This document shows positions 6,901 through 12,900 of a stretch of DNA of 64,000 nt, one piece after another. The stretch's first letter is position 1. Each line of letters starts with the position of its first letter. The DNA lies in contig NW_024704742.1 in assembly GCF_018977255.1 (NCBI RefSeq), forward strand, positions 43,960,001 through 44,024,000, written 5' to 3'. Under the pieces are notes generated by a model that was not told the origin of the DNA, ran no database searches, and saw nothing but the letters and a program-made list of their open reading frames with translations. The position numbers and the translations under genes are program-made. This DNA comes from Callorhinchus milii. Taxonomy: Eukaryota.

Positions 6901-9900
6901 CGGAACAGGCTTAAGGGGCTGAATGGCCTACTCCTGTGTCTATGTTTCTATGTTTTAGTAGTTCTATGTAGTAGTTTTTTTTTAAACAAATTCAGTATCC
7001 TGGCCTCAACGAACCTTCCTGGTAACCTGCCCCAGTTATTATTTACTTGGAAGCTTGTTAGCACAATGATAAAACTTCCCTCCCTTCTTGAATAGTCATA
7101 AGAGATCTTTAATGTCTTCCTGAATAGGTAAACAAGACCTTGGTTCAATGAAGGATAGCATCTCTGACCTTGCAACTCTCCTCCAGAATTGTACTGGAGT
7201 GTTGGCTTAGACCATGAGCCGATGTGGGGCTTGACATACACTTTCTTTTCGTAATGGCAGGCAAGACACTAGCCTTCAAATATCTTAAAGAGATTTACCT
7301 CATTTTTTTCAGGCATTCCTGGGTACAATCCAGCTCCATACACTACGCCAAGATTGTGCAAAGCATCCAGATTTCCCATTTTCATTGCTTCTTCCCAATA
7401 CGATACAGCTCTCACATAATCCTTCTCAAACGTTTCATAGTACCATCCCAAACCATTAATTGCTTCATGTGATCCCTGTTTCAATAACAAATTAAATGAA
7501 CACTTGTTCCTCTGAGAACAATATTCTCAGATTACGACACTCGCCCAATGGGATTTGAACATAGACCTTCCCCCTTCAGATAATTAGACCAAAATTGCAG
7601 TATAAACTTCGTGGAGAATAAAAACACCAGCATGGATTGGTTAGACCAAGCGGTCTGTGAGCGTGCCGTAATTCTTTGTAAATTGCAGTACATGATGTGA
7701 TACTTCACTTCAAAACTCTGGAACTCTCTGCCTCAAACCCTCTACCTTGTTCCCTCCTTTGCCTGTCTTTACATCTGAAGATGTTCCTCTTTGACCTTGC
7801 CTACGACCTCTCTCTCCAGCTGGGCATCAAGCTCTGTCAGTGTTAAGTGTTCTGAGACATTACCTCGCGTGAAGGGTGCTATAAAAATGCAAGTTGTTGT
7901 GGTGTGTCAGAGCTGGTTTTGGGAGGCTACATTGTTGGGAACAGTGTTTTGAACTTGTTCACTGACTGCAAAAGGAAACAAATATCCAATCCCAAATATC
8001 TCACGGTTCTGCTTTCGAAACCTAAGATTCACAGACTTAAATAGAAAAGCTACTGACATACAATATTGCATAAATATTCCTACCTTGGATGCTGCTTTTT
8101 TCAGTAGTTTTAAGGCTAATTTGGTATTTTTTTCCACTCCTCGGCCCTAAAAAAGAGATTTAAAGAACCCGGATTTAATTTGGTTTTATACATTTAATGT
8201 CATTCATAGAAATACACAAAAGGGTCATAGTTATAGTATTCCTAAATACATTCCATTCCTTAAATGAGGAATAAGATTAAAATATGCTAAGATTGAAATA
8301 CTTATCCTCCACCTTCTGAGTGTAGCAGCACCCAAAACGGACCAACTTATTTTTGTGGCTCAGGTATCAGGCAAACTGTGGCAATTTGTTTGCCCAGGTT
8401 TGTAATGTGTATCATGTAGTACTTAATAATAATAATCCTTGCATTTGATATAGCGCTTTTCACGTCTTCTAGACGTCTCAAAGCTTTTCACAGAATATAC
8501 TGTAAAGTGAATTGATTGTATATTTGTGGGTGAAACACGGCAGCCAAATTGTGCACAGCAGTGTCCCACAAACAGTCGTGGATTGACTGGCCAAATTATT
8601 ATTGTTTTTTGATCTTTGCTTGAGGGACTATTATCAGGCGTTCGGAGTAAGGAAAGTTGCCCAAATTTCGCCCTGCTAGTAATTTAACCCAGGTCTCTCA
8701 CTTGTGAGGCAAGTGCTCTAACCACTGAGCTACACGACTCCTAATAAGAAACAATCTTGGATTCCCGTTGACCAAGGAGGCTGATTTGAACCCTGCGAAC
8801 AAACTTTCAGATGGCATTTTACAGGGTATTGATTGCAGGTGGATTCCTGCAGCTCAGTGGTTCGAGCACTCAGTTTGCAAGGCAAGAGACCTGAGTTCAA
8901 TTCCCGGCAGGGCGAAACCTTGAGCAAGTTTCCTTACTCCACACAGAGCCTAATAATAATCCCTCCAAAACCCAAAACAATAATAAATTGGTCATTTTCA
9001 ATCCATGACTGTTTGTGGGACATTGCTGTGCTCAATTGGCTGCCGCGTTCGCCCACAAATATACAGTCAATTCACTTTACAGTGTGTTCTGTGAAGTGCT
9101 TTGGGACGTCCTCCCGACGTGAAAAGCGCTATATCAAATGCAAGGATTATTATTATTATTATTTAAGTGTTTATGCTATAAGGTGGCAATGAAAGGCTGT
9201 AATTTAATAGATTCACAACATCAAACCTGGCCGCAAGGGAACTTCAAGGATAAGCCCATCACTAGTTTTGTAGGTCTCATTTGCCACAGTTGTTTTAAGA
9301 ACATTGGAAATAGCATTCTTGCACTTCCTAGGTAACTAAATAGATAAGTACACAGTATTCATCTCTGCAAACAGACCAATTCTAGCCTAAGTCGATAAAT
9401 GTGTGAACAGCCCCTTACTATAACGCTAGCACAAACGATCTTGAACAACTACGGAAAAGACAATCTGATACAACATGCAACACAAACACAGTTATTAACT
9501 TACGTAACCACACAAGCAGCTAACCTCCTCACAATGATGGAAGAGGTTAAAATCAAGGAAAGCAATGTTTGCAGGTAGGTGTCGTGTTAAATTATGCTAG
9601 TGCTAACAGCCACTAGGTGGCAGTGCAGCCCCCCCATGTGTAGGTGGGATACATGGAATTTGCAGTTTGGTTTGGATACCCTTAAGCATGGTGATGGGTT
9701 TCTGCATGTGTCAGACACCAGCCTGGCCCTTCCCAAAAAGTTGAGTGCAGGAAATGTACCAGTTTCCAATAATAAACAGTGCCTCATTCCTAGAGGTCTT
9801 ATTGTCCAGTAAATAAAATTCAAAAACATATTACATTGACTTTTGTTGTGTTTTCAAGCCGTAACACACACGTTTTGTCTTGTTTGAAAACGAATGAAGA

Positions 9901-12900
9901 TCATTTTGCATGTTTTATTATTACGTTTAGAAACCGGAATAAACCTTAAAGTGTTAGTGCAACAATTTGGATGTGAAAATGCAATGTTATTGTTGCTCTA
10001 AATGTTATAAATGCAAAAATGGTACAACAGATAAGTTTATAGAAGTTATTATCTACCCTACTCTGGTACACATTCCAAATATAACAATAATCCTAACATA
10101 TGATTATGTGCCTTTCAAGTCAGGAGGAGTCTCAAAGCACTTAATAGAATATACTGTAAAGTGTAGCGAATGTGTATTTAATAGGCAAAATATCATTACT
10201 GAAACCTTCTTAAAAAAGCAGTTTACATGTTTTAAACTAACAATGATATTCCTTATAATCGTCTTTTCTTCTTTATACATAAAAGAAAAGATCCGTCATA
10301 CAGTATTTCTGTTCAGTTTAATCTTGTGCTTTTTCTTTATTTTGTATTTATTTTCATTATACTTTCCTCTTGTTCTTTGTGACTTTAAAAGCCAAAAAAT
10401 CATTGTTACTTGTATTTTATATAAGAAAAAAAACTTTAATATAAAAAGACTGTCATTTAGTGGTGCAACAAGCTTGTGTTCAACTTTAGGATGGGGCTGC
10501 CACTCCTATTCCAGATTCCTCCCATACAATCATATGAGAAGGTGCTGATTATAGTCAAAGCACTTTCCTAATGTTCAAAGTAAATCATTACATGACATCA
10601 TTACATTGTTCCTCCCTTACAATATAACCTTACAACACTTGCGAACTTGTCTCTGGTTGCCCATCAGTAGGACATAACCATGTGATGTGACTGCCTCCAG
10701 TGGAACAAATACTTGAAATAGAGGTAAAGAATAAAGCCGAAAAATAAAACAAATTGGATTTAACTTAGAAAGACGGTACCCTACCTTAAATAAAATAAGT
10801 GCATACTCATACATTGATAAAGGGTCTCCAGTCTCCAACGCACTTTTAGAATACCATTCTGCCGCTGCTTTAATGTCACGCATAACACCCTGTTGTCCCC
10901 AGTAAAGCATTTGAGCAAGTTTTTTCTGCAAAATAAATTATAAGAATTTTGTTAGGCGTCTAGAATTGAAAGTGGCAAACACAAAGCAAAGTGAACTGTT
11001 ACTGCAAAGCACAATTAGGATCATTAGCTGAATTCCACGGTGCTTTGATGCTGTTTATAATGGGTTGGCATTTGCTGTTAAAAGTAATCTTTATAATAAT
11101 AATCCTTGCATTTGATATAATGCCTCTCATGTTGGGAAGATGTCTCAAAGCACTTCCCAGGATTTTACTGTATAGTGCAGTTACTGTTTACAGCAAACTC
11201 CTGGCTTACCAGACTCCAGGTATCTGGAATTGAAGCCTAGCCAAACCTGGCCGGAAACCCAAAAATGTTTTAAAACTTTTCCTTGTGCCGAAGCGGTTAG
11301 ACTCCTAACTCTCCCAGCTCATGTCAACACCATGAGCAGGCTCACTGTGCTTGCTGGCTTTCCCTGTGGCTAGGGATATTACTTTAATTCAGATTGTTTG
11401 GAGATAGCTGATTCACTACCTTCTGCTCACGGGATTCAAACATTTTCAAAAAATGGCAGTAAGTACCAGTAACGACATTGTAATTACACTTAGCCAGAAA
11501 ATTCCAGCTCACCGGATTAGATCCCCCCCCCCCCCCCTCTCCCCCCCCCCCCCCCCATCAGTCCGGCTGTTTTTGGATTTAAGTCTATTTCTAGGAGAAT
11601 GTGGCACGCAATTTGCACGAGCTCTTCCCTGCAAACATCCATGTAGTGAATGAAAAGTTTTAACTGGGAAGCTGGCTGAGGTAGAAGGACAAATTCTATT
11701 CTCTTTTCAAATAGTACATGGGATCTTTAAGGTCCAGGCAAACAGGCAGGAGGGGCTCCAGTTTACCGTTTCATCCAAAGCCGGCACCTCCCAAGAATGC
11801 AGAGCTCCCACAGCACTGTACTGCACTGTCAACCTCATTGTCCCAATCTGGTGAGCTGACCCCCATACTGAGCAATTCAACATGTGGTACAACAAGCCCA
11901 CACTGCTCTTTTGACTCCAATAGTGGCTTAATACATGCAGTGGTGAATGATGGGGTTTGACATTTTAAAGTAATGGCAGGAAATAAATGTTGTGATCTCA
12001 CACAATCCAGATTATTTTAGACAGACAAAGTCCAGCTTCAATCCACGACTGTTTGTGGGACGCTGCTGTGCGCAATTGGCTGCCACGGTTTGCCCACAAA
12101 ATATACAGTCAATTAAATTTACATTATATTCTGTGAAGCGCTTTGAGACGTCTCGAAGATGTGATAAGGCGCTTTATCAAATGGAAGGATTATTATTATT
12201 AAGTACTGCATGATACACATTACATACCTGAGCAAACAAATTGCCATGGTTTGCCTGATACCTGAGCCACAAAAATAAGTCATGGTTTTCTTTTGTTTGG
12301 ATCTCCAAAACCAAATTATCCATTAGTCTTACAGGTTCTACCAGAGCCTAGGAAACAAAAGAACATTTTCATATTCAATAGAATTAAGTAAATTATTGTA
12401 AGGCTTTTAGACAGGCATAAACAAAGAGCATCTTGACACAAGAATTATTATTACTGTATTTCTAGTTACAATATAGATTTTCGTGCTAAATTAATAGCTG
12501 TCAATTATATTTTGTTCTGAATATATACTGATCGTGCTACAGAAATGATCAATGTTTATATTTTATTTTGACACATTTTGACAAACCATTTTGACACATG
12601 GTTTGCACACCACCAATGCAACATAACACAATTACCCCATCAGTGTTGGCACATCATTGCTGCAGGATCACAGTTTTTAGAAACCCTCGACTCTGAAAAA
12701 GGATCTGTTATGCATCATGTATAAATAAATTTATAGGCGCCTTTAAATAGGTAATTAACTTTCAATGAAGGCTTTCAGAATCACCTGTAATCTTTTTCAT
12801 TGGCTTTAATTTGCATACAGGGAAACCTTGTTGGAGCCCAATGTCTTAGCGGCCACTCTCTAAGCAAAGTGCGAAAAAATGGTTGACATAATCCAGGTTG

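Follow-up and report, generated by a model that had tools for sequence, protein, structure and literature searches.

The presence, in the SEL1L3 gene of Callorhinchus milii, of an intronic sequence that repeats the end of exon 12 of the same gene in the opposite orientation raises the questions of how this copy arose and whether it affects the transcript that carries it. The analysis concerned a window of 64,000 nucleotides, to whose first letter all the positions given below refer (Table 1). The gene lies on the minus strand, and the translation of exon 12 matches XP_007887256.1 with 100% identity. The original prediction was correct in naming the gene, in numbering the exons and in giving exons 12 and 13 lengths that preserve the frame; with 120, 141 and 63 nt in exons 12, 13 and 14, skipping preserves the reading frame. 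A Sel1 repeat is encoded by exon 13 together with the end of exon 12, so that skipping would indeed remove SEL1-repeat sequence, as had been stated. From the position of exon 13, it follows that the inverted copy falls in intron 13, and in the RNA the acceptor of exon 14 follows the copy at a distance of about 200 nt.

Table 1. Features of the SEL1L3 locus, with positions in the window.
Feature	Position	Strand	Description
SEL1L3 exon 12	12228-12347	-	120 nt; last 53 nt are the source of the copy; RNA-contig joints 12346>13335 and 10925>12228
SEL1L3 intron 12, first 27 nt	12201-12227	-	Donor GTATGT through to the tail of SINE B
SEL1L3 exon 13	10785-10925	-	141 nt; between the two complementary segments
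SEL1L3 exon 14	8084-8146	-	63 nt; joints 8145>10784 and 7474>8083 in RNA contigs of three runs; sequence and translation
Possible 4 extra copied bases	8341-8344	+	Local alignment, past a 2-nt gap
Exon part of the copy	8345-8397	+	Reverse complement of 12228-12280, last 53 nt of exon 12; tblastn match 8326-8397
Donor and intron part of the copy	8398-8424	+	Matches 12201-12227: exon 12 donor and first 27 nt of intron 12
SINE A	8425-8741	-	Full-length tRNA-derived SINE, about 317 nt; A-type subfamily; (ATT)4 tail 8425-8436, 12 nt
Neighbouring SINE	8841-9158	+	Full length, inverted relative to SINE A, 100 nt away
SINE B	12038-12200	+	5'-truncated; B-type subfamily; (ATT)4 tail 12189-12200

The stretch 8345-8424 of the plus strand is an inverted copy of 12201-12280, with 75 of the 80 bases identical. 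As had been proposed from the sequence, its first part repeats the last 53 nt of exon 12, and the match extends across the donor and 27 nt of intron to a shared SINE tail; the estimate of about five differences in about 80 unique nt turned out to be exact. Three of the differences are located in the exon part (8377, 8378 and 8394) and two in the donor and intron part (8400 and 8417), the donor-like site of the copy being GTTTGT versus GTATGT in exon 12. The exon part is antisense in the pre-mRNA, its exon-like reading being on the plus strand. The His of ANHG is conserved in three sharks, which indicates that the adjacent changes at 8377-8378 arose in the copy. Beyond the unique part the alignment continues collinearly through the 12-nt (AAT)4/(ATT)4 tail and then along the SINE body up to about 8590 versus 12038; by blastn, the two segments matched with 89.3% identity over 244 nt. 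In the 991-Mb assembly, the 80-mer was found in two places only, its own site and 12201-12280 (94%, E 7.5e-27), both on one contig and 3.8 kb apart.

The copy is confirmed as real. It is extremely unlikely that it is an assembly artefact absent from the animal, since it differs from the exon at five places and sits in unique flanks, and since a contig of a DNA run (7871-8374, 0 differences) extends from unique sequence across the outer edge of the copy and 30 nt into it, although this run may come from the assembly's own sample.

Concerning the two SINEs, they are in opposite orientations, 3.6 kb apart. SINE A, in intron 13, is sense in the pre-mRNA, and 35 of the 39 near-full genome matches start at query base 1-2. 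SINE B, antisense in the pre-mRNA and only 27 nt behind the exon 12 donor, lacks 155 nt of 5' sequence that SINE A has, including the tRNA-like head, while 27 of 29 B-type relatives extend at least 10 nt further in the 5' direction. At the six diagnostic columns, two of which are indels, the SINEs are opposite in every case, A with the A-type state and B with the B-type state. Each diagnostic state is present in 15-42 of 58 sampled SINE copies, and the consensus fractions of the A-type and B-type samples are inflated by their having been picked by likeness to A or B. The 21 differences between the bodies (152 columns) comprise the 6 diagnostic ones, 7 private to A and 8 private to B, so that private divergence was 7/152 for SINE A and 8/152 for SINE B, to be compared with 5/80 for the flank. 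It had been remarked that the SINE bodies are more diverged than the unique part; the direction of this difference holds (21/152 versus 5/80), while taken alone it is not significant (Fisher p 0.12). SINE B ranked 64th of 92 matches to the A body and SINE A 50th of 99 matches to the B body, each of them having dozens of closer relatives elsewhere in the genome. A tree with A and B as sisters was not rejected (AU p 0.28, lnL 13 lower, 160 columns, indels ignored). Judged from their sequences, neither of the two SINE bodies was copied from the other. Tails of 3-6 units occur frequently, which makes equal tail length a weak argument. Among 18 SINE 3' ends in the window, those of A and B are the only ones with a common flank.

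The limits of the shared tract were then delineated. Past the 5' ends of the SINEs no homology was detected (score 18, against a mean of 14.6 and a maximum of 27 in shuffles), nor was any detected outside the copy's outer edge (score 14, against a shuffle mean of 17.2). This outer edge is uncertain between 8341 and 8345, because four extra bases may have been copied. At the other end, the last diagnostic column is 25 nt from the flank, and from there on 13 nt of SINE body and the 12-nt tail are shared with a single B-private difference; this places the entry junction inside the shared SINE end or tail. At the exit junction there is no clear microhomology, the sole similarities observed being TTGGTC 6-mers that do not lie in register and a TGGT separated by a 2-nt gap. 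Neither a target-site duplication around the insert nor a new tail after the flank was found, and the other copies of the SINE family that were compared are also without obvious target-site duplications. On the sense strand of SINE B, the homology stops 0-6 nt short of the first TTTT past the tail. A Pol III read-through RNA would terminate at such a TTTT.

These features are best accounted for, with about an even chance that the account is right, by template switching or break repair acting locally on the DNA, with priming in the 3' end and tail of the SINEs. This would have left a copy that is now tolerated and probably a neutral relic. The starting point would be two unrelated SINEs in opposite orientations, B truncated behind the exon 12 donor and A full length in intron 13. 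Where the DNA broke or a fork stalled, a free end or nascent strand located at the 3' end of SINE A may have annealed to the terminal stretch of SINE B, at most 25 nt long and nearly identical in both elements, which comprises the (ATT)4 tail and the 13 nt of body next to it. Synthesis would then have left SINE B and entered its unique flank for 80-84 nt, copying the beginning of intron 12 with its donor and then 53 nt from the end of exon 12, and the strand would have been rejoined to the intron 13 flank, giving a templated insertion in the form of a short inverted duplication. As a rough estimate, the event may be about as old as the SINE insertions, and the copy would have decayed freely since. 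A nearby donor on the same molecule and shared sequence at the entry junction were both observed, and a donor situated as close as 3.8 kb, in a genome of 991 Mb, speaks for a local event at the DNA level rather than for retroposition. The data agree with the earlier suggestion that a template switch took place at the TTA tail, the junction being within 25 nt or less of the tail end. Against this origin, it can be said that homologous repair would have had only a short homology, 25 nt at most, to work with, that the tree test (AU p 0.28) does not reject A and B as sisters, that the flank-versus-body difference is not significant by itself (p 0.12), and that the homology ends near the TTTT where a Pol III read-through RNA would stop.

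Events of the MMBIR/FoSTeS type are a template-switch or break-repair origin of templated insertions. As in templated insertions and short inverted duplications, SEL1L3 has a donor a short distance away on its own chromosome, the orientation of the copy is inverted, the tract is short and the copy entered at a short shared sequence, the SINE end plus tail. Unlike in those systems, the homology came from two independent SINE copies, the tract happens to consist of an exon end and a donor, and there is no clear microhomology at the exit junction. Inverted duplication of the foldback type is described in PMC10622511 and PMC3907307.

Retroposition provides one group of competing explanations. Simple SINE 3' transduction, which had been offered as the other possible origin, predicts the source flank after the tail of the offspring, and this was found, (ATT)4 being followed by 75 of 80 identical bases. 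It is nevertheless unsupported, given that the would-be offspring A is of another subfamily than the source B (6/6 diagnostic positions), is full length with 155 nt more of 5' sequence than the truncated B, and, like B, has closer relatives elsewhere (ranks 50/99 and 64/92). The likeness of SEL1L3 to the SINE/LINE 3' transductions and reverse-transcription chimeras treated in PMC4476161 and PMC13174262 lies in a unique flank abutting a retroposon tail and a tract ending near a T run; the difference is that the SEL1L3 'parent' SINE is truncated and of another subfamily, only 3.8 kb from its source, with no target-site duplication or new tail found. A more elaborate version at the RNA level is unlikely: reverse transcription would start on a read-through or antisense transcript that contains the tail of SINE B and the flank downstream of it, change templates within the tail or 3' end so as to continue on the RNA of a full-length A-type SINE, and yield a chimeric cDNA that was inserted in intron 13. 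The flank directly after the tail, exactly as in 3' transduction, the end of the homology 0-6 nt before the first TTTT of the SINE-sense strand and a SINE part complete from its normal 5' end would all agree with it, and template-switch chimeras of this sort are known for LINE-1 (PMC4476161 and PMC13174262). On the other hand, the flank is followed by neither a target-site duplication nor a new tail, and a landing 3.8 kb from the source in 991 Mb would be very unlikely for retroposition. SINE B also lacks the tRNA-like head. The internal Pol III promoter of such SINEs lies in this head, and is thus missing from SINE B.

Two further explanations rely on successive events at the DNA level. It is very unlikely that a single duplication took in some 250 nt, comprising the truncated SINE B with its tail and flank, and that gene conversion by an A-type SINE subsequently replaced and lengthened the SINE part of the copy. 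The collinearity of the alignment over 244 nt, the non-rejection of A and B as sisters in the AU test and the non-significant difference between body and flank divergence agree with it; yet the second event would have to change all six diagnostic positions and add 155 nt at the 5' side, while halting no more than 25 nt from the tail. Alternatively, the exon end could have been duplicated in inverted orientation at an earlier date, along with an (AAT)n microsatellite into which a different SINE then inserted independently in each copy. Such a history would suit the independence of the SINE bodies, and equal tail length argues little against it, tails of 3-6 units being common. It is nonetheless highly improbable, as it requires two insertions at the same base and, given the absence of homology past the SINE 5' ends, a duplication ending at exactly that base, and as no other flank-sharing occurs among the 18 SINE 3' ends in the window.

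Regarding possible effects on the RNA, the duplex of the unique part is predicted to be strong (-130.9 kcal/mol, compared with -27.0 +/- 4.4 for 200 shuffles), with the 53 nt of the exon paired save two adjacent mismatches and one G.U. Cofolding of the segments of about 250 nt (SINE B, flank and exon 12 end versus SINE A and the copy) gave -347 kcal/mol. So, the duplex of about 240 bp that had been envisaged stands as a prediction of very stable pairing, while as a unit it was overstated: about 160 bp of it are the ordinary pairing of two independent SINEs. The complementary sequences lie on both sides of exon 13, in intron 12 (plus the end of exon 12) and intron 13. The five differences are four transitions and one transversion; one transition gives a G.U and the other four differences break pairs, with no compensatory change among the five.

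In the RNA contigs of three runs from two studies, the joints 11-12, 12-13, 13-14 and 14-15 were present in each run. Among the joints listed there was no skip or back-splice, and among the differences listed for the same contigs there was no A-to-G editing of exon 12 (T>C at 12228-12347), with the proviso that contigs drop rare forms and variants. All five C. milii protein models retain exons 12, 13 and 14. The skipping, editing and back-splicing contemplated in the original prediction thus find no support in these contigs or models, from which rare isoforms may escape. The main mRNA appears to be spliced normally despite the complementarity of the copy to the exon 12 end and donor in the pre-mRNA, so that the copy is most likely a tolerated relic. 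It is probably neutral, a harmless by-product, which would bring about no more than a low level of skipping, editing or circularisation. From the evidence at hand, it is without visible effect on SEL1L3 expression, which makes the locus valuable as an example of mechanism and not of regulation.

That the complementarity is functional and kept by selection, tuning the skipping of exons 12 and 13, guiding ADAR editing or favouring an exon 13 circle, is unlikely. Such a role would be compatible with the strength of the predicted duplex (-130.9 versus -27.0 +/- 4.4 kcal/mol), with its covering the donor and looping out exon 13, and with the maintenance of the frame on skipping (120, 141 and 63 nt). 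It also has precedents, as PMC8052449 and PMC2724269 document conserved long-range pre-mRNA pairings that regulate splicing, and PMC8897444 documents coding-sequence editing clusters guided by reverse-oriented paralogue exons. The observations on SEL1L3 itself argue in the opposite direction: only canonical joints among those listed in the RNA contigs of the three runs, exons retained in 5/5 protein models, no T>C in exon 12 among the contig differences listed, and four of five differences breaking pairs without compensation. In addition, the acceptor of intron 12 is transcribed 2.4 kb ahead of the copy, so that intron 12 could be removed first. It is also improbable that a tail-primed template switch made a lineage-specific editing or splicing guide out of the gene's own exon, with A-to-I recoding of the Sel1 repeat in some tissue, or in-frame loss or circularisation of exon 13. 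If this were true, exon-complementary guide sequences could arise in one step.

The comparison with known RNA systems shows both likenesses and differences. Like the exon-ECS ADAR duplexes dealt with in PMC8897444, SEL1L3 has an inverted exon copy downstream in the same transcript, with about 53 bp possible with the exon; unlike them, the complement is in the next intron, versus an adjoining intron or a 3' extension, and no editing is seen in the contigs. The SEL1L3 complementarity spans a kilobase range and covers a splice site, as do the long-range splicing pairings of PMC8052449 and PMC2724269, which are defined by conservation and compensatory change, whereas four of the five SEL1L3 differences break pairs. 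With regard to other repeats, inverted pairs (e.g., Alu pairs) in exon-flanking introns may be mentioned, as exon 13 of SEL1L3 is likewise flanked by complementary sequences, one in intron 12 and the other in intron 13. Such pairs promote exon skipping or circular RNA. SEL1L3 differs from them in that the complementarity is partly to the exon and donor themselves, a within-intron partner may compete for SINE A, and no skip or back-splice joint occurs among those listed.

The locus can be considered a clean fossil of a short templated insertion, in which an exon end and a splice donor were carried into the next intron via two independent SINEs. Events of this kind may plausibly supply some of the intronic sequences complementary to exons from which ADAR guides and long-range splicing structures can be made. 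The SEL1L3 complement is directly testable because it is unique in the genome. As to the SINE part, the likeliest RNA pairing partner of SINE A is, according to folding predictions, the neighbouring SINE at 8841-9158 (-420 kcal/mol, versus -193 with SINE B), while the unique 80 nt are without a competitor.

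The alignment of 8200-8700 (+) with 11950-12450 (-) bore out the repeat that had been described from the sequence, with its coordinates: intron 13 of SEL1L3, a gene on the minus strand, contains in inverted orientation the 3′-terminal 53 nt of exon 12 together with its donor and the first 27 nt of intron 12. Both copies of this unique 80-nt tract are adjoined by tails, beyond which two SINE bodies, SINE A next to the copy and SINE B in intron 12, can be aligned as far as 8590 and 12038, respectively. Within the unique 80 nt there are five differences, at 8377, 8378, 8394, 8400 and 8417. 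A search of the 991-Mb assembly located the 80-mer only twice, each time in this locus and with an E-value of 7.5e-27 for the second match, which puts the observation far beyond chance. A contig of the DNA run X10, 7871-8374, which begins in unique sequence and covers the outer 30 nt of the copy, shows 0 differences, although this run is possibly from the assembly's own sample. The tract is a real copy, in inverted orientation, of an exon end with its donor, and is unique in the genome.

Features of SEL1L3, the inverted copy and the adjoining SINEs
Feature	Position	Strand	Remarks
Exon 12	12228-12347	-	120 nt; tblastn
Exon 13	10785-10925	-	141 nt; tblastn
Exon 14	8084-8146	-	63 nt, 21 codons present in the annotated protein; seen in spliced contigs of three runs
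Copy of the exon 12 3′ end, 53 nt	8345-8397	+	alignment
Copy of exon 12 donor and 27 nt of intron 12	8398-8424	+	alignment
(ATT)4 tails, 12 nt	8425-8436 and 12189-12200		adjoin both copies of the unique tract
SINE A	8425-8741	-	full length
SINE B	12038-12200	+	starts 155 nt further in than the full-length SINE

Both SINEs belong to a tRNA-derived family, about 318 nt long and ending in an (ATT)n tail, that is abundant in the window as well as genome-wide (7693 and 2264 genome candidates at first look); its head we take to be tRNA-like from A/B-box-like motifs and general knowledge. ARAGORN found 0 tRNA genes in 8400-9200, and no name for the family was found in the open-access texts searched. 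Concerning its 3′ half, at least three sequence variants were seen window-wide and in loci L004-L062: the A-type and the B-type (with two indels), to which SINE A and SINE B belong, and a third type, represented in the window by the copies 50065-49752, 8841-9158, 14471-14763 and 34009-34190. In many B-type relatives the middle region is different or longer.

The bodies of SINE A and SINE B differ in extent and in subfamily. The 5′ end of SINE A is common to four other copies in the window, and 35 of 39 near-full genome matches start at query base 1-2, while 27 of 29 B-type relatives reach at least 10 nt further 5′ than SINE B (11 of the 29 also with a head match). The 152 columns of shared body contain 21 differences between A and B, namely six subfamily-diagnostic ones (two of them indels), seven private to A and eight private to B. 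With A-type and B-type samples chosen by likeness to A or B, SINE A has the A-type state in 6/6 diagnostic columns and SINE B the B-type state in 6/6. These states are true family variants: each is present in 15-42 of 58 sampled SINE copies, and the same split appears in unselected window copies, of which 43462-43673 has both SINE B indels. Among 92 matches to the A body SINE B comes 64th, and among 99 to the B body SINE A is 50th. In a quick IQ-TREE run (60 rows x 160 columns, indels ignored), placing A and B as sisters costs 13 lnL units and is not rejected (p-AU 0.28), and the A-type and B-type labels need 6 changes each on the tree; the divergence of the unique part (5/80) versus the bodies (21/152) is not significant alone (p 0.12). 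Despite the tree, this p value and the choice of samples, the extra 5′ sequence of A and the six matched diagnostic states, of which five are not CpG transitions, stand, and we take SINEs A and B not to be copies of each other.

The last diagnostic column is separated from the flank by 13 nt of body and 12 nt of tail, so the B-locus tract present at A would start within those 25 nt or less; it ends at 8341-8345. No homology was found beyond the SINE 5′ ends or past the outer edge of the copy, and among the 18 SINE 3′ ends found in the window the flank is common only to A and B. The target-site duplication search for SINE A gave only a 6-mer, out of register. That A and B have tails of equal length (4 units) was not used as evidence, since lengths of 3-6 units are common among those 18 ends. 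The private changes of A (7/152) and B (8/152) are comparable, within such small numbers, with those of the flank (5/80), so the event would be about as old as the SINE insertions.

Two origins had been offered in the original prediction, a SINE 3′ transduction and a template switch at the tail. Simple transduction is rejected by the body data (the extra 5′ sequence in A and the 6/6 diagnostic states), on both of which the pair fails the tested defining features of a 3′ transduction. This leaves a switch of template within the shared SINE end or tail, by which, judging from the sequence, the copy would have been made. At the DNA level, it would have occurred during break repair or by a switch of replication template, between two inverted SINEs lying near each other. 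Such an event is favoured over retroposition: in a genome of 991 Mb the donor is just 3.8 kb distant, and retroposition would land so close only by rare chance. An RNA-level course, reverse transcriptase switching from a read-through RNA to SINE RNA, is retained as an alternative; what speaks for it is chiefly the end of the homology, 0-6 nt short of the first TTTT in the SINE-sense strand, but SINE B is devoid of the promoter-bearing head. For the same reason Pol III read-through was discarded as an explanation on its own, and the adjoining TTTT was retained only as support for the RNA-level course. That TTTT, the first downstream of the SINE B tail, is at 12287-12290 (+); the copy's own flank has one at similar distance, 8334-8337 (AAAA on +), possibly by chance.

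Template-switch events of the MMBIR/FoSTeS type are known, and templated insertions and short inverted duplications arising by template switching are mechanistically similar in origin to the copy favoured here as a DNA-level product. Foldback-type inverted duplications (PMC10622511, PMC3907307) are likewise similar in origin. The open-access texts searched yielded no paper on this locus, nor on exon ends captured by priming in a SINE tail.

In the pre-mRNA, the copy lies antisense with respect to the end of exon 12 and its donor. The pairing predicted for the unique part (86 x 84 nt) was -130.9 kcal/mol, versus -27.0 ± 4.4 kcal/mol for 200 shuffles, and that of the whole stretch of about 250 nt was -347 kcal/mol. 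SINE A with SINE B alone gave -193 kcal/mol, versus -420 kcal/mol for SINE A with the full-length SINE 8841-9158 (+), which is inverted with respect to it, 100 nt away in intron 13 and transcribed just before it; these two SINEs likely form a long hairpin in the pre-mRNA. Thus, of the duplex of up to 240 bp originally proposed, the unique 80 nt hold as special, while the SINE part is ordinary pairing, probably engaged elsewhere by the stronger partner. The predicted duplex would leave the donor of exon 12 masked and exon 13 looped out. Inverted-repeat pairs flanking exons are familiar, and what they share with the copy is its RNA potential. The same likeness extends to long-range splicing structures (PMC8052449, PMC2724269) and to exon-ECS duplexes; in human, paralogue exons in reverse orientation serve as guides for large clusters of coding-sequence editing (PMC8897444).

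The runs X1, X3 and X4 are presumed to be RNA, in agreement with their contigs being spliced and those of X10 showing no such joints; in each of them (two studies), contigs contain the joints 11-12, 12-13, 13-14 and 14-15. Joints 11-13, 12-14 and 11-14 and back-splices were absent among the joints listed for these contigs, where rare isoforms are invisible, and so was T>C in exon 12 among the differences listed, low-level editing being likewise invisible. The skipping, back-splicing and editing suggested earlier were not seen among the contig rows listed, and a minor effect on splicing or editing may exist. Exons 12-14 are retained in 5/5 C. milii protein models. Of the five copy-exon differences, four disrupt base pairs and one leaves a G.U pair; the adjacent changes 8377-8378 arose in the copy, since three sharks retain the His codon, and would reflect free decay rather than maintenance. 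Transcription reaches the intron 12 acceptor 2.4 kb ahead of the copy, so that intron 12 can presumably be removed first. The copy is probably neutral today.

As for the gene, tblastn with the C. milii protein sel-1 homolog 3 (XP_007887256.1), to which the translation of exon 12 is 100% identical, located 22 exon segments in the window and overlooked exon 14, which was recovered from RNA contigs and its translation found in the protein. A Sel1 repeat straddles exons 12 and 13 (Pfam PF08238, positions 6-32 of the profile matched on exon 13), and the lengths of exons 12, 13 and 14 are such that skipping keeps the frame. Intron 12 has a run of 34 C at 11523-11556 (87% matches), and an intronic G-rich tandem repeat (46-nt unit, 2.2 copies, 98% matches) lies at 15266-15368, just upstream of exon 10. 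At 13480 (exon 11, codon 583), X1 has T versus A in the window (depth 312.5 of 312.5), and it is precisely at residue 583 that the two NCBI protein versions differ; a coding polymorphism is the probable explanation. X3 offers a further candidate, 13384 G>C.
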